From contig CAWGVS010000005.1 in assembly GCA_963826115.1 (NCBI GenBank), positions 192,001 through 256,000 on the forward strand: a stretch of 64,000 nucleotides of DNA, written 5' to 3'. Position numbers and translations under genes: made by a program. Of this stretch, positions 7,010 through 55,400 are shown piece after piece (the first letter of the stretch is position 1; each line of letters opens with the position of its first letter). The stretch is from an uncultured Candidatus Rokubacteria bacterium. Lineage in GTDB: Bacteria; Methylomirabilota; Methylomirabilia; Rokubacteriales; DASRDR01. Below the pieces are notes generated by a model, which worked only from the letters and a program-made list of their open reading frames with translations, made no database searches and was not told the DNA's origin.

Positions 7010-7456
7010 GTGCTAAGGTTCAGCAAGAAGGCTGACTACGGGCTGATGGCGGTGCACTACATCGCTTTCCATCAGCACGACGGCGTCGTGAACACCAGGC
7101 GGATCGCCGAGGACCTCGGGATCCCGTCGGAGCTCCTGGCGAAGATCCTCCAGCGCCTCGCCAAGGGCAAGCTGATCGCGAGCGTCAACGGGCCCAAGGG
7201 CGGGTACGTCCTTGCCCGGGACCCGAGCCAGATCCGGGTGAGCGAGGTGCTGCGCGCCATCGAGGGGCCCCTTGGACTGGTGAACTGCTACCGGACGATG
7301 CAGTGCCCCCAGCTCGAGCGGTGCAACATCCGGCGTCCCGTGCTGGCGATCCAGAACGGCATCGAGCGATTCCTGGAGACCATGACCCTGGAGACGATGA
7401 ATACCTTGAACGAGCCGGCGCCCGTCGCTTCGAGGCTCGTCGCAACGCGGCACTGA
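7010..7456 (+). CDS. iscR: Rrf2 family Fe-S cluster transcriptional regulator
   Basis: SKKADYGL, GPKGGYVLAR, C-x5-C-x5-C; first gene of isc operon. Confidence 0.8.
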   Translation: MLRFSKKADYGLMAVHYIAFHQHDGVVNTRRIAEDLGIPSELLAKILQRLAKGKLIASVNGPKGGYVLARDPSQIRVSEVLRAIEGPLGLVNCYRTMQCPQLERCNIRRPVLAIQNGIERFLETMTLETMNTLNEPAPVASRLVATRH

Positions 7457-7467
7457 GGAGACGGCGC

Positions 7468-8697
7468 ATGGCGGTGAAGTTCCCGATCTTCATGGACAGC
7501 AACTCGACGACGCCCGTCGACCCGCGGGTGCTCGAGGCGATGATCCCGTATTTCACCGAGAAGTTCGGGCACCCCGGGAGCCGCAACCACTCCTTCGGCT
7601 GGGAGGCGGAAGGTGGCATGGAGCGGGCTCGCGAGCAGCTGGCCAAGCTGATCGGCGCGCGCGATCCCAAGGAGCTCGTCTGGACCTCGGGCGGCACCGA
7701 GGCCGACAACCTGGCGATCAAGGGCGTCGTGGAGATGTACCGGGAGAAGGGCGACCACATCGTCACCGCGGTGACCGAGCAGCGCGCGGTCCTGGACCCT
7801 TGCCGGCGGCTCGAGAAGCAGGGTTCGGCCCGGGTGACCTACCTGCCGGTCGACGCGATGGGCGTGGTCGACCCTGACGCCGTCCGCCAGGCGATCACCG
7901 ACAAGACGATCCTCGTCTCCATCATGCTCGCCAACAACGAGATCGGAACGATCCAGGCGGTCCAGGAGATCAGCAAGGTCGCGAAGGAGCGGGGGGTCCT
8001 CTTTCACACCGACGCGACCGAGGCCGTCGGCAAGATCCCGATCGACGTCGAGAAGATGGGGATCGACCTCATGTCCTGCACGGCCCACAAGATCTACGGG
8101 CCCAAGGGCATCGGGGCGCTCTACGTGCGGCGTCGCAACCCGCGGGTCCGCCTCGCGCCCATGATCGACGGCGGTGGCCACGAGCGGGGCGCCCGCTCCG
8201 GCACGGTGCCGGTCGCGCTGGCAGTGGGCTTTGGCCGGGCGGCGGAGATCTGCCGCGAGGTCATGCCCCAGGAAGCGGCGCGGCTCTCCCAGCTGCGGGA
8301 CCGGCTGCAGGACCGGATCCTTTCCTCGGTGGACGAGTCGTACCTGAACGGTCATCCGGAGCGCCGGCTGCCGCACACGTTGAACATCTCGTTCGCCTAC
8401 GTCGAGGGCGAGTCGATCCTGATGGGGCTGAACAAGGAAGTCGCGCTGTCCTCCGGGTCGGCCTGTACCTCGTCGACCCTCGAGCCGTCGTACGTGATCC
8501 AGGCGCTCGGCGTGGGCGCCGACCTGGCCCACTCCTCGATCCGGTACGGGCTGCACCGGTTCACGACCGAGGAGGAAGTGGACGTCGTCGGCGATCGGAC
8601 GATCGAGGTGGTGCGGAAGCTTCGCGAGATGTCCCCGCTCTACGAGCTGGCGAAGGAAGGCGTGGACCTCAAGTCCATCCAGTGGAAGGCTGAGTAA
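7468..8697 (+). CDS. iscS: Cysteine desulfurase IscS
   Basis: ATG 7468 after GAGGAG; HKIYGPKGIG, SSGSACTS, SPLYE...GVDLKSIQW C-terminus. Confidence 0.95.
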   Translation: MAVKFPIFMDSNSTTPVDPRVLEAMIPYFTEKFGHPGSRNHSFGWEAEGGMERAREQLAKLIGARDPKELVWTSGGTEADNLAIKGVVEMYREKGDHIVTAVTEQRAVLDPCRRLEKQGSARVTYLPVDAMGVVDPDAVRQAITDKTILVSIMLANNEIGTIQAVQEISKVAKERGVLFHTDATEAVGKIPIDVEKMGIDLMSCTAHKIYGPKGIGALYVRRRNPRVRLAPMIDGGGHERGARSGTVPVALAVGFGRAAEICREVMPQEAARLSQLRDRLQDRILSSVDESYLNGHPERRLPHTLNISFAYVEGESILMGLNKEVALSSGSACTSSTLEPSYVIQALGVGADLAHSSIRYGLHRFTTEEEVDVVGDRTIEVVRKLREMSPLYELAKEGVDLKSIQWKAE

Positions 8698-8712
8698 AGG
8701 AGAACGCCGCCC

Positions 8713-9129
8713 ATGGCTTACAGCGACAAGGTGATCGACCACTACAGCAACCCCCGGAACGTCGGGTCCTTCGGGAAGGACACCCCGGGCCTGGGGACCG
8801 GGCTCGTCGGCGCTCCCGAGTGCGGCGACGTGATGAAGCTGCAGATCAAGGTCAACTTGGACACCGGTGTCATCGAGGACGCCAAGTTCAAGACCTTCGG
8901 CTGCGGCTCCGCCATCGCCAGCTCGAGCCTGGCCACCGAATGGCTCAAGGGCAAGAGCGTTGACGATGCCCTGAAGATCAAGAACACGGACATCGTGAAC
9001 GAGCTGAAGCTGCCGCCGGTCAAGATCCACTGCTCGGTCCTGGCCGAGGACGCGATCAAGGCGGCGATCCGAGATTTCCAGGAGAAGTGGGCCGAGCGGC
9101 AGGCGGTCGCGGGCAAGGTCCAGGAGTAG
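8713..9129 (+). CDS. iscU: Fe-S scaffold IscU
   Basis: MAYSDKVIDHY, GAPECGD, FGCGSAIA, LPPVKIHCS. Confidence 0.97.
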   Translation: MAYSDKVIDHYSNPRNVGSFGKDTPGLGTGLVGAPECGDVMKLQIKVNLDTGVIEDAKFKTFGCGSAIASSSLATEWLKGKSVDDALKIKNTDIVNELKLPPVKIHCSVLAEDAIKAAIRDFQEKWAERQAVAGKVQE

Positions 9130-9169
9130 CGGGCGGCCGAGGGAGCGGTAGAGGGGAGGACGGGCGACC

Positions 9170-9496
9170 ATGGCGGTGTCGATGACCCCGGTGGCCGTCG
9201 ATCGGGTCAAGGACCTGATGACGAGCCAGAAGCTCGACAACGCCTTCCTGCGGATGGGTGTGCGGGGAGGCGGTTGCTCGGGCATGACCTACGACCTCCA
9301 GTTCGACAGTGAGCTGCGGAAGCACGACAAGCAGTTCGAGATCGAGGGGGTCAAGGTCGTCGTGGACGTCAAGAGCTACCTGTATCTGAACGGAACGACG
9401 CTCGACTACGTCACCCAGGGGCTGACTGGCGGGTTTACCTTCGTGAACCCCAAGGCGAAGTCGAGCTGCGGCTGCGGCACGTCGTTCACGGCCTGA
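9170..9496 (+). CDS. iscA: A-type Fe-S carrier IscA
   Basis: GGGCSG and CGCGTSF motifs. Confidence 0.93.
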   Translation: MAVSMTPVAVDRVKDLMTSQKLDNAFLRMGVRGGGCSGMTYDLQFDSELRKHDKQFEIEGVKVVVDVKSYLYLNGTTLDYVTQGLTGGFTFVNPKAKSSCGCGTSFTA

Positions 9497-9615
9497 GTTT
9501 TTTCACACGGGGCGGGGCGAGCGGCATCCCGACCTGACTCGAGGCGGAGCGGACAGCGATCTCTGACCGGGCCTCCTCCGAGGCCCGGTTGGTGTTTGGG
9601 GGACTGACGGCGGAG

Positions 9616-10299
9616 ATGGCGGGCGAGCGAGAGGGATCGAAGTGCTGGGGGTGCGGCGCGGTCGCGCGCGACGGGGAGGTCTGCCCCGAGTGCGGCCGGC
9701 TTCAGCCCTTCTCCGCTGGGGGCGACCACTGGACGGTGCTCGGGCTGGAGCGCCGGCTGGGACTCGATCGTCCCGATCTCGAGCGGCGCTTCCACGATCT
9801 GAACCGGCGCCTTCACCCGGACTACTTCCGGCTGCGGTCGCCGGAGGAGCAGGGTATCAGCCTGGAAGCCTCGGCGGCCGTGAACCGGGCCTATCGCGCG
9901 CTGCGCGATCCGGTCAGCCGCGTGGAGTACCTGCTGGAGCTCGAGGGGCTGGGGCTCGGAACAGCCGGGCAGGCGAAGCCGCCGGCGGATCTGTTCGAGG
10001 AGATCCTGGAGCTCCAGGAGGCGCGGATGGAGCTCCAGACTGCCGACCCCGACGAGGCGCCGGCGCTGCGCGCCCGCCTGGAAGCGTCCCGGGCGGAGCT
10101 GGAGGCCCGGCGCGCCGGGGCGGAGAGCGAGCTGACGGCCTGCTTCCCGGAGTGGGACGCGGGCGACGCCGCCACACGGCGTCGGGTGCTTGGCCGGATG
10201 CGTGACATCCTCGCGACCCGGGCATATCTCCGGACGGTCCTTCGCGACCTGGGCGCCGCGCTCGCCGTCCCAAGCGATGGAGGACCGACGGACCCATGA
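9616..10299 (+). CDS. hscB: Co-chaperone HscB with N-terminal tetracysteine domain
   Basis: J-domain LHPD, NRAYRALRDPVSRVEYLL; N-terminal CWGC...CPEC; start uncertain (9589 or 9616). Confidence 0.9.
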   Translation: MAGEREGSKCWGCGAVARDGEVCPECGRLQPFSAGGDHWTVLGLERRLGLDRPDLERRFHDLNRRLHPDYFRLRSPEEQGISLEASAAVNRAYRALRDPVSRVEYLLELEGLGLGTAGQAKPPADLFEEILELQEARMELQTADPDEAPALRARLEASRAELEARRAGAESELTACFPEWDAGDAATRRRVLGRMRDILATRAYLRTVLRDLGAALAVPSDGGPTDP

Positions 10300-12185
10300 C
10301 GGACCTGAAGATCGGCGTGGCCCCCGGGATGCGGGGCGACGCGGCAACCAAGGAGCTCGTGGTCGGGATCGACCTCGGGACCACGAACAGCCTGGTGGCG
10401 TACATGGATCGGGGCGTGCCCCAGGTGATCCGGGATGCCGATGGCCGGGGCCTCGTGCCCTCCGTCGTGGCGTTCGGGCCCACGGGCTCCGTGGTCGGCG
10501 ACGCCGCGCGCCGGATGCTCGTGCGGAACGCGGAGCGCGCGGTGTACTCCGTCAAGCGTTTCATGGGGAAAGGCTTCGAGGACGTCCGCGAAGAGCTGCG
10601 GTACTTCCCGTTCCACGTCACGCCGAGCCAGGAGATCGTCCGCATTCGGATCGGCGACCGCGAGCTCACGCCGCCCGAGATCTCGGCCCTGATCCTCCGC
10701 GAGCTGAGGACGCGTGCCGAGCGTCACTTCGGCCGTCCGGTGGAGAAGGCGGTCATCACGGTGCCCGCCTACTTCAACGACGCCCAGCGCCAGGCGACGA
10801 AGGACGCCGGCCGGATCGCCGGGCTGGACGTCCTCCGGATCGTCAACGAGCCGACTGCGGCGTGCCTCGCCTACGGGCTCCAGCGACGGAAGGAAGGCGT
10901 GATCGCCGTCTACGACCTCGGCGGCGGCACCTTCGACGTCTCGATCCTGAAGGTCAAGGACGGCATCTTCGAGGTGCTGGCGACCAACGGGGACACCCAT
11001 CTCGGCGGGGACGACTTCGACCGCGCCTTGGTGGACCTCGTCGTGGACCAGCTCCGGACCCGGCACGGTGTCGACGTCGCGGGCGAGGCGGAGACGCTCC
11101 AGGAGATCCGTCTCGGTGTGGAGGCCGCCCGCATCCTGCTGTCGAGCGAGGAGCGGACGGTCCTGACCCTCCCGCTCCCGCAGCACGACCTGACCTACCG
11201 GTGGGAGCTCAGTCGGAGCGAGATGGAGTCGGCGATCGGCCCCATCGTGTCGCGGACGCTCGGGCCCTGCCGGGCGGCCATCGCCGATTCGGGCCTGGGC
11301 CTCGAGGGGATCGACGAGGTGGTCCTGGTGGGCGGGGCCACGCGGACGCCCCTGGTGCGGCGGAGGGTGCAGGAGCTGTTCGGGCGGCCGCCTCATTCCG
11401 AGCTGAACCCCGACGAGGTCGTCGCGCTCGGCGCTGCCGTCCAGGCGGACATCCTCGCCGGCGGGACGACGCACATGCTTCTCCTCGACGTCACCCCGCT
11501 ATCGCTCGGCATCGAGACACTGGGCGGCGCCGTGAGCGTGCTGATCCCCCGCAATACCACGATCCCGACGTCCGCGAACGAGGGGTTCACGACGTCGGTG
11601 GACGGGCAGTCGGTCGTGGACATGCACGTGGTCCAGGGGGAGCGCGACCTCGCGCAGGACAACCGGAGCCTCGCGCGATTCGACCTCCGGGGCATCCCGC
11701 CCATGCCGGCGGGTCTCCCGCGCATCGAGGTGACCTTCCTGATCGACGCGAACGGCATCCTGAGCGTGACGGCGAAGGAGGTCCGGAGCGGCACCCAGGC
11801 CTCCGTCGAGGTGCGGCCGACCTACGGCCTGAGCGACGCCGAGGTCGAGCGGATGATCGACGAGTCGCTCGAGCACGCCGAGGCCGACGTCCGGGCGCGC
11901 GGGCTCATCGACGCGCGGAACGAGGCCGACACCGTGCTGCGCGCGACCGAGAAGGCTCTGGTGCAGGGGGCCGAGTTCCTCGAGGCCGAAGAGGCGGCGC
12001 GGATCCGCGAGGCCGTGGCGGCGCTCGCGCGGGCCCGCCAGGGCGAGGACGCGGACCTGATCCGGGAGGCGACGGACCGAGTGAACCACGAGACCCAGCA
12101 GCTCGCCGAGCGGCTCATGGACTCCGCCCTCCGCGAGTCCCTCCGGGAGCGCCGGGTGGCCGACCTGCCGGCGGGGGAGCGCTGA
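10296..12185 (+). CDS. hscA: Fe-S chaperone HscA (Hsp70)
   Basis: GIDLGTTNS, TVPAYFND, DLGGGTFD, EVRPTYGL; between hscB and fdx. Confidence 0.93.
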   Translation: MTDLKIGVAPGMRGDAATKELVVGIDLGTTNSLVAYMDRGVPQVIRDADGRGLVPSVVAFGPTGSVVGDAARRMLVRNAERAVYSVKRFMGKGFEDVREELRYFPFHVTPSQEIVRIRIGDRELTPPEISALILRELRTRAERHFGRPVEKAVITVPAYFNDAQRQATKDAGRIAGLDVLRIVNEPTAACLAYGLQRRKEGVIAVYDLGGGTFDVSILKVKDGIFEVLATNGDTHLGGDDFDRALVDLVVDQLRTRHGVDVAGEAETLQEIRLGVEAARILLSSEERTVLTLPLPQHDLTYRWELSRSEMESAIGPIVSRTLGPCRAAIADSGLGLEGIDEVVLVGGATRTPLVRRRVQELFGRPPHSELNPDEVVALGAAVQADILAGGTTHMLLLDVTPLSLGIETLGGAVSVLIPRNTTIPTSANEGFTTSVDGQSVVDMHVVQGERDLAQDNRSLARFDLRGIPPMPAGLPRIEVTFLIDANGILSVTAKEVRSGTQASVEVRPTYGLSDAEVERMIDESLEHAEADVRARGLIDARNEADTVLRATEKALVQGAEFLEAEEAARIREAVAALARARQGEDADLIREATDRVNHETQQLAERLMDSALRESLRERRVADLPAGER

Positions 12186-12187
12186 CC

Positions 12188-12511
12188 ATGGCCCGCTACC
12201 GGGTCACGTTCCGGCCGGCGAACGTCACGGTGGAGGTCGATGACAAGGACTTTCCGTACGGCGACCACGGGAAGCCCGGGTCACTCCTCGACATCGCCCT
12301 CCACCACGGGATCCGCCTGGACCACAACTGCGGAGGTAACTGCGCCTGCACGACGTGCCACGTCGTCGTCAAGGAGGGCGAGGAGAACCTCTCGCCCATG
12401 GAGTCCGACGAGGAGGACCGCCTCGACACCGCGACGGGCCTGACCCTCCACTCGCGGCTCGGTTGTCAGGCGATCGTGCAGGGCGACGTCGTCGTCGACG
12501 TCGTGGAGTGA
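12188..12511 (+). CDS. fdx: ISC [2Fe-2S] ferredoxin
   Basis: 3' part of ORF 10190..12511: MARYRVTF...HNCGGNCACTTCH...SRLGCQ. Confidence 0.92.
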   Translation: MARYRVTFRPANVTVEVDDKDFPYGDHGKPGSLLDIALHHGIRLDHNCGGNCACTTCHVVVKEGEENLSPMESDEEDRLDTATGLTLHSRLGCQAIVQGDVVVDVVE

Positions 12512-46209: not shown

Positions 46210-46962
46210 ATGAACCCGCTGGGCGGCGCGCTGGTCGCGTTCCGCTACCTCACCGTCCTGCCGCTCCCGAAGAGCCGCGCGCCGGGCGACCTCGGCCGCG
46301 CGGCGGGCTGGTTTCCCGTCGTCGGCCTCGGCGTCGGCGTGTGCCTCGCGCTCGGCTCGCTCGCGGCGGACCGCCTGGTGCCGCCGGGCGTCGGGGCCAT
46401 GCTTCTGATCGCGCTCTGGGCGGGGCTGACGGGCGGCCTTCACCTCGACGGGCTCGCCGATACGTTCGACGGCCTCGGCGGCGGCTGGTCGCGCGAGCGC
46501 GCCCTCGCGATCATGCGGGACGCGCGGAGCGGGCCCTTCGGCGTCATCGCGATCGCCCTCGTGGTGGGCTTGAAGGCGACGACGCTCGCGAGCCTCCCGG
46601 AGGGCCTCGCCTGGAAGGCACTCGTGCTCGCGCCGGTCGTCGGGCGGGCCGGGCCGCTCCTGCTCGTGCGGCTCTGTCGACCCGCGCGCCCCGACGGCGC
46701 GGGGCACGCGCTCGCGGCCGGTGTCCGGTGGCCGTCGCTCCTCGCAGGCGGGCTCTTCGCCCTCCTGGCGTCGATCGGGATCCTCGGATGGTGGGGCGCG
46801 CTCGCGCTCGTCGGCGCGAGCCTCTTCGCGTGGGCCTGGGCCGCGTACCTCCGGCGGCGGCTTGGCGGATTCACGGGGGACACGCTCGGCGCGCTCGTCG
46901 AGGTCACCGAGGCCTTCGTGCTGACGCTCGCCGTGAGCGTCGATTTCCTGGAGCTCGCCTGA
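46210..46962 (+). CDS. cobS: Adenosylcobinamide-GDP ribazoletransferase
   Basis: TGGLHLDGLADTFDG, IMRD..SGPFG, GGFTGDTLGA. Confidence 0.92.
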   Translation: MNPLGGALVAFRYLTVLPLPKSRAPGDLGRAAGWFPVVGLGVGVCLALGSLAADRLVPPGVGAMLLIALWAGLTGGLHLDGLADTFDGLGGGWSRERALAIMRDARSGPFGVIAIALVVGLKATTLASLPEGLAWKALVLAPVVGRAGPLLLVRLCRPARPDGAGHALAAGVRWPSLLAGGLFALLASIGILGWWGALALVGASLFAWAWAAYLRRRLGGFTGDTLGALVEVTEAFVLTLAVSVDFLELA

Positions 46963-47618
46963 TGGCCTCGACCTGGGTCTACCTGGCTCGCCACGGCGAG
47001 GTGCTCCACGCCGCGGAGGGCCGCTTCTTCGGCCACACGGACATCGCGCTCTCGCCGGCGGGGCAGACCCAGGCCGCGGCGCTCGGGCGCCGTCTCGGGG
47101 CGGAGCCGATCGACGCGGTCTACGCGAGCGACCTCACGCGCGCGCGGGAGTCCGCCGCGCCGCTGGCCGCGGCCCGCGGCACGGACGTGGTTCCGGTGGC
47201 GCCACTCCGCGAGATGGCGATGGGGCGCTGGGAGGGGCTCACGTTCGCCGAGATCCACGCACGTGAGCCCGAGCTGTGCGCCCGGTGGCTCGCCGATCCG
47301 TTCGCGATGCCGTTTCCGGAAGGGGAGGGCGTGGCCGATCTCCACGCCCGCGCCGTGCCGGCCCTGCGGGACGTCGTGAGCCGGCACGCCGGCCACCGGA
47401 TCGCCGTGGTCGGACACGGCGGGACGAATCGCGTCATCCTCGCCGACGCCCTCGGGCTGCCGCTCCAGAACATCTTCCGCCTCGGCCAGGACTACGCTGC
47501 CTGGAGCCTGATCGAGTACCGCGACGGCGGGGCGGTCGTGCACGCCCTGAACCAGCGACTGCCCGACGCGCCGGGGGCGCCCCCGGTCGAGTCGACCCTT
47601 TCGCGGCGGGGCGCCTGA
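46962..47618 (+). CDS. cobC: Histidine phosphatase, alpha-ribazole phosphatase-like
   Basis: RHGE, SDLTRA, LREMAMGRWEG, GHGG; directly after cobS. Confidence 0.75.
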   Translation: MASTWVYLARHGEVLHAAEGRFFGHTDIALSPAGQTQAAALGRRLGAEPIDAVYASDLTRARESAAPLAAARGTDVVPVAPLREMAMGRWEGLTFAEIHAREPELCARWLADPFAMPFPEGEGVADLHARAVPALRDVVSRHAGHRIAVVGHGGTNRVILADALGLPLQNIFRLGQDYAAWSLIEYRDGGAVVHALNQRLPDAPGAPPVESTLSRRGA

Positions 47619-47986
47619 TGACCGAGGCGATGCGCGTCGACAAGTGGCTGTGGGCCGCGCGCTTCTACAAGACCCGGAGCCTCGCGCAGACCGCGTGCGA
47701 CGGAGGCAAGGTCGACGTCAACGGCCAGGCCGCCAAGCCGTCCCGGACGATCCGCGCCGGGGACCGGATCCACCTCACGCTGGGCGAGTGGCGGCGCGAG
47801 CTGGTGGTGAAGGCCCTGTCGGAGCAGCGCGGCCCCGCCACGCAGGCCCGAACGCTCTACGACGACCTCTCGCCGCCCCCGCCGCCCCGGCCACTTCGCC
47901 CGCCCAAGGCCGTCGTCCGCGCGCCCGGCCTCGGCCGGCCGACCAAGCGCGAGCGGCGGCTCCACGACCGCATCCGCGGCTCCTGA
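47618..47986 (+). CDS. hslR: S4-domain ribosome-associated heat shock protein Hsp15
   Basis: MRVDKWLWAARFYKTRS, GRPTKRERR. Confidence 0.9.
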   Translation: MTEAMRVDKWLWAARFYKTRSLAQTACDGGKVDVNGQAAKPSRTIRAGDRIHLTLGEWRRELVVKALSEQRGPATQARTLYDDLSPPPPPRPLRPPKAVVRAPGLGRPTKRERRLHDRIRGS

Positions 47987-48078
47987 GCGGGGCTCCGGTT
48001 GGCGGATGCGGCCCGGGCCCCGGTCTGGTACCGTGGGAAACCGGTGATCGACGCTGACACCCTTTCGGAGAGGAGCTC

Positions 48079-49323
48079 GTGATGGCCCCCGACGCGCGGC
48101 ACGACGGCACGACGGCGGAGTTGACGAAGTTCGCCTGGGGTCCGGACCGCTTCAACCCGCGCGTCCGCGCGACCTCCCCGATGCCGAGGGCCGGCGCGGC
48201 GCCGCCCGACGTCATCTCACTGGCGTACGGGATGCCCGACCCGGCCCTGTTCCCGACGGCCGGCCTCGCCGCCGCCGCCCAGGAGGCGCTGGGCGACCCG
48301 GCCCGCTACGCGGTGGCGCTCCAGTACGGGAACGTCGGCGGCAACCCGCTTCTCCTCGCCGAGCTCGGCAAGAAGCTCGAGGGGGAGGAGGGGCGGCCGG
48401 TGCCGCCGGGCGGCCTCATCATGACGAACGGCTCCTCCCAGGCGATCGCGCTCGTCGTGCAGGCCCTGGCGGCCCCCGGTGACGCGTGCCTCTGCGAGGC
48501 GCCGACCTTCCTCGGGACCATCCACCACATCCGGTTCCAGGGCGTGCGAACCGTGCCCGTCTCGCTCGACGACGACGGGATCGACGTCGAAGGGACGGAG
48601 CGCGAGATTCGCCGGCTCGAGGCGGCCGGCACGCCGGCCCGCTTCATCTACACGATCCCCACGTTCAACAATCCCGCCGGGACGACGATGACGCTCGATC
48701 GGCGTCGCGCCTTGCTCGATCTCGCGGCGCGCCACGGCGTGCCCATCATCGAGGACGACGCATACCGCGACCTCCGCTTCGAGGGCGATCCCGTCCCGAC
48801 GCTCCACGCGCTGGACCGCGAGGGCCTCGTGATCCGGCTGGGCACCTTCTCGAAGATCGTCGCCCCCGGCGTGCGCTTGGGCTTCGTCCTCGCCGACCCG
48901 GCGGTGATCGAGCGGGTGCTGGCATTCAAGGCCGAGGGGAGCACGAACGGCTTCGCGTCGATGGTGGTCGGGACGTTCATGAAGACGGGCGGGCTCGCCG
49001 CGCACATCCAGACGCTGCGCTCGGCCTATCGGGAGCGGCGCGACGCCATGTACGAGGCGCTCGCCCGCGAGATGCCGGCGGGCGTCACGTGGACCCGCAC
49101 CGAGGGCGGGTTCTTCCTCTGGCTGACGATCCCGTCCCGGGCGGACATGACGAAGTTCAGCGCCCGCGCCGCCGAGGAGCGCGTCGTCGCGCTGGCGGGG
49201 ACCGAGTGCTTCCCCGACGGACGCGGAGCGCACAACCTCAGGCTGGCCTTCAGCCTTCAGCCGACGGACCGGATCGCCGAGGGCATCCGGCGGCTCGGAC
49301 GGGCCATTCGCGCCGGACTCTGA
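48079..49323 (+). CDS. PLP-dependent aminotransferase class I (LysN/ARO8-like)
   Basis: LAYGMPD, YTIPTFNNPAG, IEDDAY, GTFSKIVAPGVRLG. Confidence 0.9.
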   Translation: MMAPDARHDGTTAELTKFAWGPDRFNPRVRATSPMPRAGAAPPDVISLAYGMPDPALFPTAGLAAAAQEALGDPARYAVALQYGNVGGNPLLLAELGKKLEGEEGRPVPPGGLIMTNGSSQAIALVVQALAAPGDACLCEAPTFLGTIHHIRFQGVRTVPVSLDDDGIDVEGTEREIRRLEAAGTPARFIYTIPTFNNPAGTTMTLDRRRALLDLAARHGVPIIEDDAYRDLRFEGDPVPTLHALDREGLVIRLGTFSKIVAPGVRLGFVLADPAVIERVLAFKAEGSTNGFASMVVGTFMKTGGLAAHIQTLRSAYRERRDAMYEALAREMPAGVTWTRTEGGFFLWLTIPSRADMTKFSARAAEERVVALAGTECFPDGRGAHNLRLAFSLQPTDRIAEGIRRLGRAIRAGL

Positions 49324-49333
49324 GCCCGCAAGT

Positions 49334-49363
49334 TTGACGCGCGCCGACGCGCGATGCTACGGT
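49334..49363 (+). promoter_or_regulatory. Putative promoter of the peptide cluster
   Basis: TTGACG (49334-49339), 18 nt, TGc-TACGGT extended -10 (49355-49363). Confidence 0.5.
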
Positions 49364-49406
49364 TCCGAGGGTGATGACGCGCCGGCCGGGGCGCGAGGGA
49401 GCGACG

Positions 49407-49547
49407 ATGGACGGGCGGGACGGTGACAGCCTGGCTGAGCGTCTGCCGGAGTACGAGCCGCCGCGCGTGGAGCGGGTGCTGACGCCGGCGGAGATCGAGC
49501 GGGAATTCCGGTACGCCGGCGAGCCCGACGGCACTCCGGGCTTGTGA
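49407..49547 (+). CDS. Putative RiPP precursor peptide 1 (46 aa)
   Basis: MDGRDGDSLAERLPEYEPPRVERVLTPAEIEREFRYAGEPDGTPGL; GAGGGAG RBS. Confidence 0.85.
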   Translation: MDGRDGDSLAERLPEYEPPRVERVLTPAEIEREFRYAGEPDGTPGL

Positions 49548-49681
49548 TGACGGATCGGGAGCGACCAGCGGAGGACGCGCCGAGCTATGAGCCGCCGCGC
49601 GTGGAGCGGGTGCTGACACCTGCCGAGATCGAGCGAGAGTTCCGGTACGCTGGCGGGGCCGACGGCACGGGGCCTGCGTAG
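49547..49681 (+). CDS. Putative RiPP precursor peptide 2 (44 aa)
   Basis: MTDRERPAEDAPSYEPPRVERVLTPAEIEREFRYAGGADGTGPA; TGATG coupling to peptide 1. Confidence 0.85.
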   Translation: MTDRERPAEDAPSYEPPRVERVLTPAEIEREFRYAGGADGTGPA

Positions 49682-49702
49682 ACAGCGGGGAGCGAACTGC
49701 GA

Positions 49703-49834
49703 ATGAGCGAAGACGAGGGGCGATTGACGGACGGACCGGGCTACGAGCCGCCGAGAATCGAGCGCGTGGTCACTTCAGCCGACCTCGATCGCGAAGTGCT
49801 GTACGCCGGCCCGGCGACCTCGGACCCGATATAG
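49703..49834 (+). CDS. Putative RiPP precursor peptide 3 (43 aa)
   Basis: MSEDEGRLTDGPGYEPPRIERVVTSADLDREVLYAGPATSDPI; GGGGAG RBS. Confidence 0.85.
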   Translation: MSEDEGRLTDGPGYEPPRIERVVTSADLDREVLYAGPATSDPI

Positions 49835-49863
49835 CCGCCAGAGCAGCGCGCGATCTGCGGAGC

Positions 49864-50022
49864 ATGGAAGCCGTGCGGATGGGCGAACCAGACGGGGGTG
49901 GGGCGGACGCGACGCGCTACGAGCTCCCGCGGGTGGAGCGGCTCTTGACACCGGCGGACATCGAGCGCGAGTTCCTCTACGCCGGCCGCTTCGACGGTAG
50001 CCCGGTCTCGTCGGATTCCTGA
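49864..50022 (+). CDS. Putative RiPP precursor peptide 4 (52 aa; 47 aa from ATG 49879)
   Basis: MEAVRMGEPDGGGADATRYELPRVERLLTPADIEREFLYAGRFDGSPVSSDS. Confidence 0.82.
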   Translation: MEAVRMGEPDGGGADATRYELPRVERLLTPADIEREFLYAGRFDGSPVSSDS

Positions 50023-50042
50023 CGGACGATTCGCGGGGAGGG

Positions 50043-50183
50043 ATGACGGATCGAGACCGACTGGACCATTGGTCGGCCCGCGAGCTCCCGCGAGCGGAGC
50101 GGCTGCGGACGCCGGCGGAGATCGGGCGCGACCTCCTGCATGCCAGCGACGTCGACATCATCACGGGCGCGACCGACGGATAG
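50043..50183 (+). CDS. Putative RiPP precursor peptide 5, divergent (46 aa)
   Basis: MTDRDRLDHWSARELPRAERLRTPAEIGRDLLHASDVDIITGATDG; GGGGAGG upstream. Confidence 0.65.
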   Translation: MTDRDRLDHWSARELPRAERLRTPAEIGRDLLHASDVDIITGATDG

Positions 50184-50219
50184 CTGGGGCGCCACCGTCA
50201 TCCCTCTCGACGGCCTGCC

Positions 50220-50510
50220 ATGACCGGCCGCGGGGCCCCGGAACGCGCGTACGCGCGATCCGGGCAGGTCGAGGCATCGGTCGTCGGCGACCGAGTGGTG
50301 CTCTACCACCGGACGTCGCGCAGCGCGCTGGTCCTGAACCCCACGGGGAGCCGCCTCTGGGAGCGTCTCGCGACACCTGCCAGCCTGCCCGAGCTGATCG
50401 CGACGCTCCGCGAGCGGTTTCCGGCGCTGAGCGTCGAGGATGCGCGTCGGGACGTGGCCGCGTTCCTCGACGAGCTCACCCAACACGGGGCCATCGCCCC
50501 GCCGCCGTGA
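50220..50510 (+). CDS. PqqD family RiPP recognition element
   Basis: 96 aa; VVGDRVVLYH...LNPTGSRLWERL...LRERF...ARRDVAAFLDELTQHGAI is the PqqD pattern. Confidence 0.88.
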   Translation: MTGRGAPERAYARSGQVEASVVGDRVVLYHRTSRSALVLNPTGSRLWERLATPASLPELIATLRERFPALSVEDARRDVAAFLDELTQHGAIAPPP

Positions 50511-51385
50511 TCCCCGGCGTGGGCCCGATCCGCTGGTCGGCCGGGCCGCTCTCGTTCGAGCTCCACTGCAACGCCCCGGCCGTCCGGTCACTGGCCCTGC
50601 CCGTCTTCCGTCCCTGGAGTCTGAACGACGGGGCGCCGCCGCCGACCCACATCTGGCGGATCGAGCGCATGGCGGAGCACGACGGGGCCGGAGAGTGGCA
50701 GGTCCGGTCCTCGGCCGGCGCGGAGGCGCGGGTCGGGAGCGCGGCACGCGCCGTCAGCGCCGTCGAGTACGGCGCCGTCGCCACCCTCGCGGAATCGGCC
50801 GCCGTCACCGCGCACGGCGCCCTGGTCGCGGTGGGCGGGCGCGGCGTTCTGCTGGTCGGGCGCGGCGAGGCCGGCAAGTCGACGCTCGCCTGCGCGCTCT
50901 GGTCCCGCGGGGCCGCCCTCCTCGGCGACGACATGGCCATCCTTGACGTCGCCACGGGCGAGGCCCGACCGGGGCCGAGGCGCGTGTCGCTCCGGGCCGA
51001 CAGCCGCGCGTTGCTCGGCGACGCCTTCTTCGACCGGGCCATGCGCGGGCCGTCGAGCGTCGCGCTCGGCGACTCCCACCTGTTCCACCCTGGCGAGATC
51101 GAGCCACGGCCCCGGCCCGAGACGGTGGAACTCGGCGCGATCGTGTTCCTGGCCCGCCGGAGCAGCGCGGTCGACGGCGCGCGCCTCGAGCCGATCGCGC
51201 CGGCCCATGCCCTCCTCGCGCTCCTGCCGTACTCGAACATCCGAACGCACCGGCCGTTTGGCGAGGCGATCCGGATCCTGGTCCCGCTCGCCGACCGCGT
51301 ACCCGCCTTTGACCTCGGGCGCGGGTCGCTGCCCGAGATGGCCGCGGCAGTGGAAGCGCTCGCGGGCGCCCCCTCACGGGCATGA
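50507..51385 (+). CDS. HPr kinase-related P-loop kinase
   Basis: GTG 50507 overlaps PqqD stop; AHGALV, Walker A GRGEAGKST, LLGDD. Confidence 0.82.
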   Translation: MIPGVGPIRWSAGPLSFELHCNAPAVRSLALPVFRPWSLNDGAPPPTHIWRIERMAEHDGAGEWQVRSSAGAEARVGSAARAVSAVEYGAVATLAESAAVTAHGALVAVGGRGVLLVGRGEAGKSTLACALWSRGAALLGDDMAILDVATGEARPGPRRVSLRADSRALLGDAFFDRAMRGPSSVALGDSHLFHPGEIEPRPRPETVELGAIVFLARRSSAVDGARLEPIAPAHALLALLPYSNIRTHRPFGEAIRILVPLADRVPAFDLGRGSLPEMAAAVEALAGAPSRA

Positions 51386-53604
51386 GCCTGACCCCGGCGC
51401 TCCGCATCGGGTCGGCGGCGACGCCGCCCGCGACGTCGATGGCGCTCATGCTGACGCGTCGCTGCAACATGCGGTGTGGGCACTGCAGCGTCGAGAGCGG
51501 ACCGGACGTGCGTGGCGAGCCGACCGAGGAGGAGCTCCTCGACCGCGTCCGCCAGGCTGCGGCTGGCGGCGTCCGGGCGATCAACCTCACCGGCGGCGAG
51601 CCGATGCTGCGCCCGCGAACGGTCCTGCGGCTCGTGCGCGCGGCCCGCCGCCTGGGCGTGGCGACGACGCTCACGACGAACGGCTCCTGGGGGCGGACCG
51701 CTGCTCGCGCGCGGCGGGGTGTCCAGGCGCTCCGGCGCGCGGGCCTCGCGTCGCTCGCGATCAGCGTCGATCGCTACCACGACGAGTTCCAGGGCCCGAC
51801 GCCGACGCTCCTGATCGCGCGGGCCGCCGAGGAGGCGGGCCTGCCGGTGCGGATCAGCCTCGTCGTGCCGGCGGGGCGGTCGGAGGAGGACGGGCTCGCG
51901 GCGCTGGTCGCGCCCTTCGAGGGTCTTCGCAGCACGCGCCTCCGGTTCTACGGGCTCCAGGCGGTCGGGCGGGCGCGCGGTCTGCCGGTCGAGACGATGG
52001 GCGCCGACATCGACGGCTTCTGCGCCGCGTGCGCCGCCCCCGCGGTGACGGATGACGGGCGCCTGACCGCGTGCAACGGGCCCGCGTACTTCGCGCCCGA
52101 AGGGTCGCCGCTGATCGTCGGGTCGCTCCGGTCGGAGCCCCTCGGCGTGCTTCTCGCGCGCCACCGGGAGGATCCGATCCTCGACACGATCCGGACGCAC
52201 GGGCCGACGCGACTCAGGGACGAGCTCCGGGCGCTGCCCGGCTTCGAGACCTTCCCGTTCCGCAAGCGCTATCTCGGCATCTGTGACCTCTGCCTGCACG
52301 TCACGTCCGACGCCAAGGCCGTGGCGGCCCTGCGGGTGCGGCTCGACGATCCCGCGCGCGCGGCCGAGCGCCGGGCCGCGTGGCTGGTCATCCAGGACGG
52401 CCGCCGGCGTGGCGAGCTGAACGCCGGGCGCGTCAACGGTCCCGGCGCCGCGCGGGTCTTCCTCCGGGCCGCGACGGAGCCGGCGGCGACCTATGGCGAC
52501 GAGGCCGAGCGGATCCTCGCGCGCCCCGACGTCGACTGGAAGCGATGGGCCACGTACCTGACCGCGTGCGGCTTCGCCCGGTCGCTCGCGCCGGCGCTCG
52601 ACCGGCCCGGGCTCACGGGACGGGCGCCCGCGTTCTTCGTCGAGACGCTGCGGGCGGCCGCGGTGCGCGAGGGCATCCGCGAGCTGGTTCAGCGCGAGGT
52701 GCTGCGCGAGGTGGAGGCCGGTCTCGCCACGATCGGCGCCCGCGGCGTCGTGCTCAAGGGGATGGCGCTGGCGCTCCGGGCCCGCGAGGCGGGGGACGCG
52801 GTCCCGCCCCGCGCCACCGGGGATGTCGACGTCTACGTGGAGTCCGACCGCGCGCCCGCCCTGCGCCGGCACCTCCTCGAGCAGGGGTTCAGCGGCGTCC
52901 CGGACGCGCGCCCCACGTCGACCCACCACCTCGCGGCCGTGTCGATCCGCGGCATCCAGGTGGAGATCCACACGCGGATCACGGCGCCGCACTGGGGGCT
53001 GCCGGAGGCGGAGATGCTGAGGCGCGTCCGCCCGCTCGACTCGGCCCAGCGGCTCGACACGCTGGATCCCGAGGGGCTGCTGCTCCACTCGATGGTGCAC
53101 TGCTCCCAGCACTGCTTCTCGCACGGGCTCCGCGCGGCGTGGGACGTCCTCGCGGTCCTGCGGACCCGCCCGGACATCGACTGGGCCCGGCTGGCGGGCT
53201 GGGTGAAGGCGCTTCGGGCGCCGCGCGGCTTCTGGGTGCCGGCGGCGGTGCTGGCGCGGGAGCTCGGGCTGCCGCTACCGCCGGAGCTCGTGCGCGAGGC
53301 GCCGCGCGACGCGCTTCAGCGGAACCTCGAGGCGGTCGCCGCCCGGCGCCTCTTCCGCGTGGTCGAGCGAGTCGACGAGCTCGATCCCATCAGCCGGAAC
53401 GCGGTGCTGCTCCTCCTGCACGACTCCTTTGCGGCGCGGGCGCGCTATCTCGGCGCTCTGTCCCGATGGGCGCTGGTACGTCCCGGGCGGCGGACGGGGC
53501 CCGCCCGCTCCACGCCATCCGGGGCCGGGAGGCTCCGCCAGGCCTGGCGGCACTTCCGCCAGTACCGCGGCGCCGTCACGCGCGCGGCCGCCGACGAGGA
53601 CTGA
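51382..53604 (+). CDS. Radical SAM (auxiliary Cys cluster) fused to nucleotidyltransferase-like domain
   Basis: CNMRCGHC, TGGEP, TNG, ISVDRYH, CAAC...DGRLTAC...ICDLC; C-terminal VLKG...RATGDVDVYV...VEIH. Confidence 0.88.
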   Translation: MSLTPALRIGSAATPPATSMALMLTRRCNMRCGHCSVESGPDVRGEPTEEELLDRVRQAAAGGVRAINLTGGEPMLRPRTVLRLVRAARRLGVATTLTTNGSWGRTAARARRGVQALRRAGLASLAISVDRYHDEFQGPTPTLLIARAAEEAGLPVRISLVVPAGRSEEDGLAALVAPFEGLRSTRLRFYGLQAVGRARGLPVETMGADIDGFCAACAAPAVTDDGRLTACNGPAYFAPEGSPLIVGSLRSEPLGVLLARHREDPILDTIRTHGPTRLRDELRALPGFETFPFRKRYLGICDLCLHVTSDAKAVAALRVRLDDPARAAERRAAWLVIQDGRRRGELNAGRVNGPGAARVFLRAATEPAATYGDEAERILARPDVDWKRWATYLTACGFARSLAPALDRPGLTGRAPAFFVETLRAAAVREGIRELVQREVLREVEAGLATIGARGVVLKGMALALRAREAGDAVPPRATGDVDVYVESDRAPALRRHLLEQGFSGVPDARPTSTHHLAAVSIRGIQVEIHTRITAPHWGLPEAEMLRRVRPLDSAQRLDTLDPEGLLLHSMVHCSQHCFSHGLRAAWDVLAVLRTRPDIDWARLAGWVKALRAPRGFWVPAAVLARELGLPLPPELVREAPRDALQRNLEAVAARRLFRVVERVDELDPISRNAVLLLLHDSFAARARYLGALSRWALVRPGRRTGPARSTPSGAGRLRQAWRHFRQYRGAVTRAAADED

Positions 53605-53637
53605 GCCGCCCGGCGACGGCGCGCCGGGCGGGGAGCT

Positions 53638-54459
53638 TCAGCGGCCCGGGTGCCCCTGCGTCTCGTGCCAGCGGGCAATCGCCTCGCCCGTCGTGAACCA
53701 GACTCCCGGGAACCGGCGGATGTAGGCCACGAGCTCCTCGAGCAGCATGATCCGCGAGGCGCGCCCGATCACGAAGGGGTGGCAGGTCAGCACGAAGCAG
53801 CCGTTCTCCCGGTAGATCCCCGAGAATTCTCGGCTCCACAGGTCGAACACCCGGGCCGGGTCGGCGATGACGTTGCCGGCCCCGTAGACGTGGCGGAAGA
53901 GCGGCGCGTCGTCGAGGATCCACTGCACCGGGACCTCGATCAGCGGGCCGTGGCTCGTCTCGAGGAGGTACGGCACGTCGTCGCCCATGAGCGAGCTGTC
54001 GTAGAGGAAGCCGTGGGCCTTCAGGATGCCGGGCGTCCTCACGTTCACGTCCCAGGACGGCGAGCGGTAGCCGGCCGGGCGCACGCCGAGCTGGTCGGCG
54101 AGGATCCGGAGCTGCGCTCGCATCACCGCTTCTTCCTGCGCGGCGTCCAGGCCGTCGACCGCCTCGTGGACGTTGCCGTGGGCGCCGATCTCGTGGCCGG
54201 CATCCCTGATCCGGAGGGACTGCGGGCGGTGGTTCTCGACCGTCCAGCCCGGAATGAAGAACGTCGCCGGGAGCCGCAGCTGGTCGAGCATGCGGAGGAT
54301 CCGGTCCACGCCGACGCGGGGTCCGAAGCGTCGCTCCTCGAGACCGGCCAGGCTTCGCTTGGACTTGTCAGGCTCCCGGAAGAGGAACCCCGACTCCGCG
54401 TCGAAGTCGAACGACAGCACCACCGCGCACTGCTGGCCCTCGGGCCACTGGTATCGCAT
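53638..54459 (-). CDS. Polysaccharide deacetylase (CE4, PuuE/HpPgdA-like)
   Basis: SFDFD, TFFIPG, HEIGAHGNVHE, GYRSP, YDSSLM, TCHP. Confidence 0.88.
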   Translation of the reverse strand: MRYQWPEGQQCAVVLSFDFDAESGFLFREPDKSKRSLAGLEERRFGPRVGVDRILRMLDQLRLPATFFIPGWTVENHRPQSLRIRDAGHEIGAHGNVHEAVDGLDAAQEEAVMRAQLRILADQLGVRPAGYRSPSWDVNVRTPGILKAHGFLYDSSLMGDDVPYLLETSHGPLIEVPVQWILDDAPLFRHVYGAGNVIADPARVFDLWSREFSGIYRENGCFVLTCHPFVIGRASRIMLLEELVAYIRRFPGVWFTTGEAIARWHETQGHPGR

Positions 54460-54468
54460 CGTGGTCTC

Positions 54469-55224
54469 CTATCCCCCCATGAAGGCGCCGCCGTTGACGT
54501 GGATCGTCTGACCGGTGATCCAGCCGGAGTGCTCGCCGACGAGGAACACGGCCACGCGGGCGATCTCCTCCGGGGTGGCCATCCGGCCCTCCAGCGGAAT
54601 CTGTCGGCCCAGCTCGACGAGCTCCGCCTCCGAGTTGCCGTACCGCGGCTGCGCCGTGTCCGTGAGCCCCGGGGCGATCGCGTTGACCCGAATGCGGTGA
54701 GGCGCGAGCGCGAGCGCCATCGCGCGGGTGAGGCCCATGACTCCGGCTTTGCTCGCCGAGTAGTGGACACCGAGCGGCGTCCCCCGCATGGCCACCGAGG
54801 CGAGGTTCACGATGGCGCCCCCACGCCCGGCCTCGACCATCCGCCGCGCCGCGGCCTGCGCGCAGAGGAAGCTGCCTTTCAGGTTCACGTCGAGCACGTG
54901 GTCCCACTCCGCCTCGGTCATGGCGAGGAAGTCGACCCGCGGAAAGACCCCCGCGTTGTTGACGAGGATCGCCGGTGCCCCGAGCTCGCAGGCGACCGCG
55001 GCGACCATCGACTCCGCGTCGCCCGTCCGGGAAACGTCGCCCTGGACGAGGCACGCGCGGCGTCCGATCCCGCGGACCTCGTCCGCGACCCGCTCGGCGG
55101 CGGCGCGGTCGTCGAGGTAGTTCACGCCCACGTCCGCGCCGTCCCGTGCAAGGGCCACGGCAATCGCCCGGCCGATGCCCTGCTGGGCTCCGGTCACGAG
55201 TGCGACCCGACCGACGAGCTGCAT
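54469..55224 (-). CDS. Short-chain dehydrogenase/reductase
   Basis: TGAQQGIG, NNAG, YSASK, NAIAPG. Confidence 0.9.
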   Translation of the reverse strand: MQLVGRVALVTGAQQGIGRAIAVALARDGADVGVNYLDDRAAAERVADEVRGIGRRACLVQGDVSRTGDAESMVAAVACELGAPAILVNNAGVFPRVDFLAMTEAEWDHVLDVNLKGSFLCAQAAARRMVEAGRGGAIVNLASVAMRGTPLGVHYSASKAGVMGLTRAMALALAPHRIRVNAIAPGLTDTAQPRYGNSEAELVELGRQIPLEGRMATPEEIARVAVFLVGEHSGWITGQTIHVNGGAFMGG

Positions 55225-55400
55225 GGGTCCTCCGTCCCTCGGGCCGGCTCGCTTGCGGCCCGACGCGTACAGTACCCCAAGGCCCCTCGGGGGTGAAGCC
55301 GTGGCCGGCACATCGAGCGATCGGGCCGCGGGTGTTGCCAGGACTCGGGAGACGCTATCCTGAGCGCCACACGAACCCTAGACACTCGAGGAGCGCGCTC

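Follow-up and report, generated by a model that had tools for sequence, protein, structure and literature searches.

A candidate RiPP cassette from uncultured Rokubacteria that joins a PqqD-family protein, an HPr-kinase-like protein and a radical SAM-transferase fusion to many scattered precursor genes

Do the tiny open reading frames (ORFs) that precede three enzyme genes in an uncultured bacterium encode the substrates of those enzymes, and does the whole belong to any peptide class described so far? The question is raised by a locus of about 4.3 kb within a 64,000-nucleotide stretch of DNA, here called the window, from an uncultured Candidatus Rokubacteria bacterium (assembly GCA_963826115.1, contig CAWGVS010000005.1, positions 192,001 to 256,000 of the forward strand). 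An initial annotation of the window had proposed that the locus encodes a new system for a peptide that is ribosomally synthesized and modified post-translationally (RiPP). RiPP classes are defined by a precursor family together with class-defining enzymes. The answer we favor, with a probability of roughly two in three, is that the locus is a self-contained cassette of the RiPP family, undescribed in the libraries and papers searched, for which a working model can be proposed. The parts list of the cassette, its conservation as a unit, the co-occurrence of enzymes and peptides, and the presence of further precursor genes in trans are established. The picture is of a real, widespread and apparently undescribed RiPP-type system whose chemistry is predicted.

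The cassette occupies positions 49407-53604 of the window on the + strand. Five paralogous small ORFs are followed by genes for a PqqD-family protein (a RiPP recognition element, RRE), an HPr-kinase-like P-loop kinase, and a 740-aa fusion (51382-53604) of a radical S-adenosylmethionine (SAM) domain with a PF14907 nucleotidyltransferase-like domain (Table 1). The locus had been described as a single co-oriented unit whose five small ORFs have a conserved part in common, and the description holds: all genes are on the + strand and the five peptides align as paralogues. The overlaps reported between the enzyme genes are also real. Reading the bases directly places the GTG of the kinase gene at 50507, over the TGA of the PqqD gene at 50508-50510 (GTGA), and the ORF coordinates place the end of the kinase frame at 51385 and the ATG of the fusion at 51382 (ATGA). 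For peptide 1, an alternative upstream GTG start is possible at 49371; an identical 46-aa protein is present in the public protein collection (P0161).

The peptides form a coherent family. Those of the window have a mean column identity of 59% when aligned, with the consensus YEPPRVERVLTPAEIEREFLYAG. In 31 curated family sequences the build consists of an N-terminus that is variable, acidic and 9-29 residues long, a block of 23 residues (YEPPRVERVLTPAELEREVLYAG) and a hypervariable tail of 3-21 residues. Within the block, Pro4, Glu7 and Ala22 are invariant (31/31), and Tyr1, Glu18, Tyr21 and Gly23 are present in 30 of the 31. The ratio of nonsynonymous to synonymous changes (pN/pS, uncorrected, over the 23 codons) is 0.31 for the 31 family members and also 0.31 for the 11 copies in the window's genome. 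The block is under purifying selection, and the small ORFs look protein-coding. Peptide 5 departs from the family at seven block positions (Y1>R, E18>D, Y21>H and G23>S are among them) and may be decaying or specialized for another role. A profile search of a collection of 5.8 billion proteins found 833 peptide clusters at E <= 0.001. All of the 120 matches listed are named "hypothetical protein" at source, and no Pfam domain is assigned to any of them. Correspondingly, Pfam and NCBIfam (June 2026) hold no model that matches the peptides even at E <= 10.

The tail is the part in which the family members differ most from each other. The block is seen in 119 of the best 120 matches, and the tails that follow it amount to 109 unique sequences, typically 5-12 residues long. 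Ser or Thr is present in all 109; the first such residue falls within tail positions 1-5 in 108 tails, and the remaining tail has it at position 6. The same residues are present in 31/31 curated tails. From the tails' own composition, 13.4 tails devoid of Ser and Thr would be expected and none is observed (P about 5e-7, a value that is overstated because the tails are related). The composition of the unique tails is acidic (D+E 19%, K+R 1.8%), and for the whole peptides among the best 120 database matches the net charge has a median of -6. Five of the 109 tails end in Ser and 18 in Thr. The hypervariable acidic tail would behave as a core, and the YAG at the end of the block resembles a leader-core junction. 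The thioether classes (sactipeptides, ranthipeptides and lanthipeptides) were considered and ruled out, the precursors being essentially without Cys (0/31 in the curated peptides and one Cys in total across the 109 unique tails).

The enzymes and the peptides occur together. Among 251 genomes of the phylum, the fusion is found in 10: nine of the 15 genomes of the window's genus, the window's genome included, and one genome of another family (G135). The peptide is found in 11, which are the same 10 and one more that is 68% complete (G233); the other 240 have neither. A scan of genome contigs with a single protein as the query reached close relatives only, with seven true loci among the best 80; the other 73 were other radical SAM genes and were dropped. 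These seven closest public loci are from metagenome-assembled genomes (MAGs) of Rokubacteria/Methylomirabilota, and their fusions are 75-83% identical to the window's. In five of the seven, a hidden Markov model of the five peptides detects 3-6 homologues directly 5' of the PqqD gene. Of the remaining two, L003 is too short upstream, and in L001 an aminotransferase gene runs straight into the PqqD gene. Short ORFs, which had been anticipated at homologous cassettes, are present in 5/5 close loci with room and a non-empty upstream region (L002, L004-L007). Loci L004 and L007 are from long-read MAGs, and their kinase, fusion and some of their peptide genes are frame-broken; sequencing indels, rather than real pseudogenes, may account for this.

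More distant relatives were reached by a metagenome scan in which the query was an alignment of 12 diverse members. It returned 80 loci, of which L081-L092 belong to the true family and L093-L160 were dropped. The fusions of these 12 loci are 43-81% identical to the window's, most of them 44-55%, and the gene order is retained in the distant loci despite the 44-55% identity. The kinase gene is directly 5' of the fusion in 11 of the 12, and the twelfth (L089) begins 240 nt before the radical SAM gene. The peptide is found in nine; the other three (L081, L087 and L092) begin inside the PqqD or the kinase gene and cannot show it. Short ORFs are present, in other words, in 9/9 metagenome loci reaching far enough upstream, and the anticipation extends to distant cassettes. 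L082 and L086 are duplicates of one sequence, and the GC content is 51-69% in the five metagenome loci measured. At the protein level, the fusion has at least 184 homologues at E <= 0.001; the 120 listed are mostly 700-790 aa long and have both domains, and the named matches among those listed are from MAGs of Binatia, Abditibacteriaceae and Gemmatimonadales.

Two variants of the arrangement were seen among the metagenome loci. In L089 (240-2184), a radical SAM gene (43% identical, residues 19-429) is followed by two peptides located 3', not 5', with the block YQPP(R/K)IEKIIPAKQFERE..(Y/H)A(G/A). In the subclade of L083 (1-2130) and L090 (1-2360), the peptide gene or genes abut the kinase gene. 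In L083, a gene of the beta-lactamase family (PF00144) overlaps the 3' end of the fusion on the same strand.

The boundaries of the cassette can be drawn from its surroundings. In three congeners without the cassette (G236, G239 and G241), the aminotransferase and deacetylase genes, which lie on either side of it in the window, are immediate neighbors, an empty site. The flanks of the distant loci vary from one locus to the next and are unrelated to each other: genes for ADP-forming acetyl-CoA-synthetase-like, aconitase, beta-lactamase-family, DinB, ArsR, AHSA1 and KDPG aldolase proteins are found there. The varying flanks and the empty sites together indicate that the cassette consists of the peptide(s), PqqD, kinase and fusion genes. 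The aminotransferase gene (48079-49323), the polysaccharide deacetylase gene (53638-54459, - strand) and the short-chain dehydrogenase/reductase gene (54469-55311, - strand) were considered as members and rejected, being adjacent in the cassette-less congeners and not found beside distant copies.

Precursor genes are not confined to the cassette. The window's genome (6.24 Mb in 12 contigs, 99% complete) has 11 precursor genes at four loci, five of them in the cassette and the others at three orphan loci (Table 1), where no paralogues of the enzymes are present. The neighbors of the orphan loci are mutually unrelated, and include a TPR protein, glutamate dehydrogenase, DUF1989, a Gal-1-P uridylyltransferase-like protein, SmpB, a GT4 glycosyltransferase, an amidase, DUF302 and ORFs without a family. 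The genome of L001 (G242) has the cassette with no adjacent peptide gene and has five peptide genes elsewhere. A single enzyme set combined with many scattered, hypervariable precursors is the layout of combinatorial RiPP systems. One enzyme set would then serve many precursors.

The PqqD assignment of the initial annotation was well founded (PF05402, 55.3 bits against a cut-off of 23.4), and the protein is conserved across the family alignment. Its best NCBIfam match is TIGR04353 (HPr-rel-A PqqD), with 33.3 bits and E 6.9e-8, below the cut-off of 35, and models of lasso B1 proteins match with E values of 2e-6 to 5e-6. When PqqD was co-folded with peptide 2, both as alignments, the interface score ipSAE was 0.55 versus 0.01 for the best control, a weak signal that may be memory of solved RRE-leader complexes. 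The mark used for such co-folds is reached by 58 of 80 solved complexes and by 2 of 110 mismatched pairs, and only seven of those 80, together with both mismatches, reach it at a score of 0.60 or less. At least 86% of contacts are common to the runs, and the pLDDT of the partner is at least 57. The kinase matches PF07475 with 34.7 bits (cut-off 33.3) and TIGR04352 ("HprK-related kinase A") with 60.2 bits (cut-off 200, E 1.6e-16). The HPrK-like signature pointed out earlier is conserved: H103, GxxxxGKST at 118-126 and DD at 141-142 are invariant in 14 family members, as are GKST at 123-126 and PRRVSLR at 157-163. The protein also aligns to solved HPr kinases (chains 2qmh and 1ko7), with the upstream His, the Walker A motif GxxxxGK[ST] and the downstream DD all present.

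The third gene had been read as a fusion of radical SAM and nucleotidyltransferase domains over 740 aa, and both domains are recognized by Pfam (PF04055, 72.6 bits; PF14907, 96.5 bits). A family profile of the radical SAM domain, built from 86 members, finds YydG/EpeE (8ai1-8ai6) in the PDB with an E value of 5e-30 over chain residues 27-326, and MoaA (1e-15) and PqqE (4e-10) come next. An AlphaFold model of the whole fusion (pLDDT 89.9, pTM 0.88) gives the same relative: the nine best PDB matches by Foldseek are all EpeE chains (target-normalized TM 0.80-0.82, rmsd about 3.2 A over about 313 columns), well ahead of SkfB (0.49) and PqqE (0.60). The domain has the CxxxCxxC motif at C28/C32/C35 and invariant Cys at 214, 231, 301 and 304 that align with EpeE Cys, and the motifs SYDxYH and NGFWG are common to both proteins. 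Its best NCBIfam match, TIGR04078 (the YydG epimerase), covers model positions 2-301 of 309 with 76.3 bits, versus a cut-off of 300.

In the profile alignment, Asn232, nearly invariant in the family, takes the position of EpeE Cys223, and the posterior probability is maximal over this stretch; the neighboring Cys231 aligns with EpeE Cys222. EpeE Asp210 aligns, with moderate confidence, with Ala218. The mutant chains C223A and D210A, together with their PDB titles, bear out the EpeE numbering, which has an offset of 25. According to a 2017 review, Cys223 is the H-atom donor that completes epimerization in EpeE (PMC5682303). As judged from alignment, the radical SAM domain is an EpeE/YydG homologue without a defining catalytic residue of the epimerase. 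With an Asn in place of the H-donor Cys223, epimerization of the YydG type is doubtful, and more than one outcome of the radical step is conceivable.

The transferase domain is more remote from anything solved. In 86 sequences, KG460, D481xD483, E528 and H530 are conserved, and the domain fits the pattern of pol-beta-type enzymes, in which a Gly-containing loop is followed by DxD and by a third carboxylate. KG460, D481xD483 and E528 are the putative catalytic residues. A separate model of the domain has a pLDDT of 79, and Foldseek with this model finds no PDB match at E <= 0.001. The matches are all weak, the best with an E value of 3.4e-3, and the top ones are the pol-beta-type nucleotidyltransferases MenT1, ANT(2'')-Ia, TM1012 and CCA-adding enzymes. 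An NCBIfam search with the domain alone gave no family even at E <= 10. At one locus (L174; G135:C412, 5022-7090), residues 20-424, the radical SAM part, and residues 448-728, the transferase part, are in different frames. The split could represent two natural genes, a frameshift or an assembly error; if natural, the halves can function as separate proteins.

How do these parts compare with systems already known? The closest assemblage is the tailoring set of some lasso peptides. In the sets for paeninodin (PadeK), pseudomycoidin (PsmK/PsmN) and the Bradymonas system (BsfB1/BsfK/BsfN), as in the cassette, precursors with a YxxPx(L/V/I) leader have beside them the genes for an RRE of the PqqD type, a homologue of HPr kinase and a nucleotidyltransferase of the PF14907 type. 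HPrK homologues phosphorylate lasso precursors before lasso folding, and the Bradymonas RRE BsfB1 strongly stimulates the kinase BsfK, which needs the leader, carrying YxxPxL, and is inactive on the core alone (PMC10368454). In pseudomycoidin, a nucleotidyltransferase adds hexoses onto the phosphate, and the target of the characterized lasso kinases is a C-terminal Ser (PMC8498205). Unlike these sets, the cassette has no cyclase or B2 peptidase and none is required in the genome, its transferase is fused to a radical SAM domain, and the likely acceptor would be an internal Ser/Thr near YAG rather than a C-terminal Ser.

That the window has no lasso cyclase and no B2 had been stated at the outset and is correct: the genome's sole match to PF13471 (B2) is on another contig, and none of its seven PF00733 matches is within C5:192001-256000, that is, the window. 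The further claim that the system is of a non-lasso kind gains support from other genomes. PF13471 is matched in 64 of the 251 genomes (58 above the cut-off), 59 of which are without the cassette. It is found in only five of the 10 cassette genomes, and among those lacking it is G243 (10 contigs, 98% complete), which carries five peptide genes besides its cassette. As a rule, the core of a lasso peptide starts with Gly, Ala, Ser or Cys and has Asp or Glu at positions 7-9, and its leader has Thr at -2. No register of block and tail is consistently in line with this rule. When counted lasso-style from the Tyr, the core would begin at Glu18, and there is no conserved acidic residue at core positions 7-9; a cut after Thr-Pro would place a conserved Glu at core position 6. 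The same genome does have a lasso-type cluster at C6:113000-118500 (L173 about 7139-12499, - strand), with a PqqD/B1 protein of 123 aa, a PF13471 B2 protein of 144 aa and an Asn-synthase-like cyclase of 692 aa. Genes for M48 and M20 peptidases precede this cluster, and two Peptidase_S74 "chaperone of endosialidase" proteins follow it.

Two other known types of system are relevant for the radical enzyme. With YydF/YydG (EpeE) of Bacillus subtilis, the cassette enzyme has in common the fold from end to end, the three-Cys SAM motif, four further Cys, and both SYDxYH and NGFWG. It differs in the replacements at Cys223 and Asp210 and in being fused to a transferase domain of 400 residues; an RRE and a kinase are encoded alongside, neither of which is, to our knowledge, part of the yyd operon, and the precursors are unrelated. 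With the systems for pyrroloquinoline quinone (PQQ) and mycofactocin (PqqD/MftB with PqqE/MftC), the cassette has in common its small peptide, its chaperone of the PqqD family and a radical SAM enzyme that has an auxiliary cluster. However, PqqE is a far weaker match than EpeE (4e-10 vs 5e-30), there are many paralogous precursors with variable ends, and in place of downstream peptidase or oxidase genes the cassette has a kinase and a transferase.

The initial annotation knew of no described product with this leader, and our searches matched the locus to no characterized class: the peptides have no Pfam or NCBIfam model, the PqqD and kinase proteins are below the cut-offs of the HPr-rel-A and SynChlorMet families, and no description was found in the literature. 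The loose likeness to HPr-rel-A and SynChlorMet cassettes that it noted survives in part. Models of these cassettes are the best or near-best NCBIfam matches of the kinase and the PqqD protein, the ScmD and ScmC matches being weak (TIGR04248, 23.7 vs 100 bits; TIGR04249, 18.3 vs 125 bits), but all of the scores, those of TIGR04353 and TIGR04352 included, are below the curated cut-offs. A full-text search on their names turned up neither system, so there is no characterized function for comparison. For the cassette itself, no description was found in searches of the full-text literature, the coverage of which does not extend to subscription journals and supplementary files. Neither in that literature nor in the curated libraries did we find the precursor family, the fusion of an EpeE fold to PF14907, or the pairing of the fusion with an RRE and an HPrK-like kinase outside a lasso context. 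All of the parts come from known superfamilies; it is the precursor family and the combination of enzymes that appear to be unrecorded.

A working model can be assembled by analogy with these systems. PqqD would bind the start of the block, YExP(R/K)(V/I), which has the same YxxPx(L/V/I) pattern as that bound by lasso B1 proteins, and would present the peptide to the HPrK-like kinase for phosphorylation of a Ser or Thr. The likeliest phosphosite would be the obligatory Ser/Thr in the first five or six residues after YAG, and the invariant Thr/Ser at block position 11 is an alternative. The PF14907 domain would then place a nucleotide-derived group (a nucleoside monophosphate, a sugar or an alcohol phosphate) on the phosphate or the hydroxyl, as PsmN does in pseudomycoidin. 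The phosphorylation by the kinase, the capping of the phosphate by PF14907 and the division into leader and core are all predictions of this kind. The fused EpeE-like domain would abstract an H atom from the same bound peptide, and the fusion of the two domains suggests a coupling of the transferase and radical steps on a single substrate. Because the equivalents of Cys223 and Asp210 are missing, the radical step probably does not end in an epimerization of the EpeE type; its result could be an epimerization that relies on another H donor, an oxidation, or a C-C or C-O link. A more specific version, which we put forward only tentatively, is a RiPP class of uncultured soil phyla in which a radical step other than EpeE-type epimerization is combined with an RRE-guided phosphodiester cap (nucleotide or sugar) on the obligatory Ser/Thr of the tail, one enzyme set serving scattered precursors. 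In this version the radical modification would possibly be at the invariant L-Y-A-G junction, and it could even release the tail without a protease.

Several observations weigh against the reading of the locus as a self-contained RiPP cassette with tail cores. The co-occurrence counts rest on about two lineages of kin genomes, which are not independent; the metagenome loci contribute independent lineages. The kinase is barely above its Pfam cut-off and far under the NCBIfam cut-offs. At two distant loci (L083 and L090), PqqD is found neither between peptide and kinase nor in the 0.9-1.3 kb upstream, so that the RRE is not always encoded by the cassette. Few tails end in Ser (5/109), hence the specificity must differ from that of lasso kinases. 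The cassette has no gene for a peptidase, a transporter or immunity, and none is conserved beside distant copies. With neither a peptidase nor an exporter in the cassette, how the leader would be removed and the product exported is not explained; the peptides may act intracellularly or remain uncleaved. A plausible promoter had been claimed in front of the unit; a sigma-70 scan of 49200-53900, which covers one promoter type, found no promoter-like site, and no terminator-like site was found over the same interval. Finally, conservation within the peptide is highest in the block of 23 residues, not in the tail, a pattern that would also fit the block as the modified core.

The last point leads to an alternative that we consider unlikely and yet worth taking seriously, namely, that the block, or its E..YAG end, is the true substrate and the tail a follower, with a single conserved product, for example a cofactor or signal derived from the peptide. 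Such a pairing of PqqD protein and radical SAM enzyme is also known from the PQQ and mycofactocin pathways. The near-invariance of the seven block residues listed above would be expected in this case, as would the finding that, between members with 44-55% identical fusions, the block is as similar as the enzymes or more so, a point that also counts against tail cores. Among solved structures, PqqE is one of the nearer relatives of the radical SAM domain, and a product of this sort would be in keeping with a cassette that has no peptidase or exporter. A single product is hard to reconcile, however, with up to 11 paralogous genes per genome and 109 unique tails in 119 matches, which is the pattern of combinatorial RiPPs. 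The tail also has a constraint of its own (Ser/Thr in positions 1-6), the distribution is patchy (10/251 genomes), and EpeE is the nearest solved relative by a wide margin. A second alternative is a further epipeptide system, in which a YydG-type epimerase installs D-residues and the kinase and transferase are accessory. TIGR04078 as the best NCBIfam match from end to end, the profile E value of 5e-30, the TM of 0.80-0.82 and the two common motifs all agree with this explanation. It is nevertheless improbable, as the TIGR04078 match reaches 76 of the 300 bits required, Cys223 and Asp210 are replaced by Asn232 and Ala218, the precursors are unlike YydF in NCBIfam and Pfam searches, and the cassette has no YydH-like protease or YydIJ-like transporter.

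The cassette could also be a tailoring module for lasso peptides, with the cyclase and B2 elsewhere, for example in the cluster on contig C6. Its PqqD and kinase are most like those of kinase-bearing lasso clusters, YxxPx(L/V/I) is the motif of lasso leaders (PMC10368454), and the genome does contain a B1-B2-C cluster at C6:113-116 kb. Such a module is very improbable given that five of the 10 genomes with the cassette, including one that is 98% complete, have no B2, that 59 genomes have B2 and no cassette, and that the peptides fit no lasso register. Least credible, to the point of being nearly negligible, is the notion that the small ORFs are not substrates at all, being chance ORFs, regulatory leader peptides or unrelated small proteins, and that the enzymes act elsewhere. 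Spurious ORFs are abundant in high-GC DNA and the promoter scan was empty, but 833 clusters at E <= 0.001 have the same three-part build, which is retained in family contigs of 51-72% GC, and the family shows purifying selection. Moreover, the co-occurrence with the enzymes is strict, and the position directly 5' of PqqD or the kinase is kept in distant lineages. Family size, the pattern of selection and the co-occurrence with enzymes exclude chance ORFs.

The RiPP cassette should be of relevance to natural-product and radical-SAM specialists. Its range includes sequences labeled Methylomirabilota/Rokubacteria, Binatia, Gemmatimonadales and Abditibacteriaceae. At 4.3 kb it is a small, expressible system for asking what an EpeE-type enzyme does without the H-donor Cys, what PF14907 transfers and onto which acceptor, how one RRE serves both a kinase and a radical enzyme, and how one enzyme set serves a library of precursors in trans. 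If the model is true, phospho- or nucleotidyl-capped short peptides from phyla without cultured producers would be new chemical matter.

Table 1. Genes and domains of the cassette, in window positions, and the orphan precursor genes of the same genome, in contig positions (C5 is the contig that contains the window).
Feature	Position	Strand	Remarks
Precursor peptide 1	49407..49547	+	46 aa from ATG; block YEPPRVERVLTPAEIEREFRYAG, tail EPDGTPGL
Precursor peptide 2	49547..49681 (start 49544/49547)	+	44 aa; ATG overlaps peptide 1 TGA; tail GADGTGPA
Precursor peptide 3	49703..49834	+	43 aa; tail PATSDPI
Precursor peptide 4	49864..50022	+	52 aa; tail RFDGSPVSSDS
Precursor-like peptide 5	50043..50183	+	46 aa; divergent block
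PqqD-family protein (RRE)	50220..50510	+	96 aa; PF05402
HPr-kinase-like P-loop kinase	50507..51385	+	292 aa; GTG start overlaps PqqD stop
Radical SAM domain of the 740-aa fusion	51382..52413	+	residues 1-344; EpeE/YydG fold; PF04055
PF14907 nucleotidyltransferase-like domain of the fusion	52414..53604	+	residues 345-740
Orphan precursors, four in tandem	C5:928092-928814	-	L170
Orphan precursor	C12:700155-700262	+	L171
Orphan precursor	C5:625232-625357	-	L172

Farther upstream in the window (46950-47990), on the 5' side of the aminotransferase gene, translations inspected by eye include a histidine-phosphatase-like ORF and a small ORF that resembles an S4-type RNA-binding (Hsp15-like) protein.

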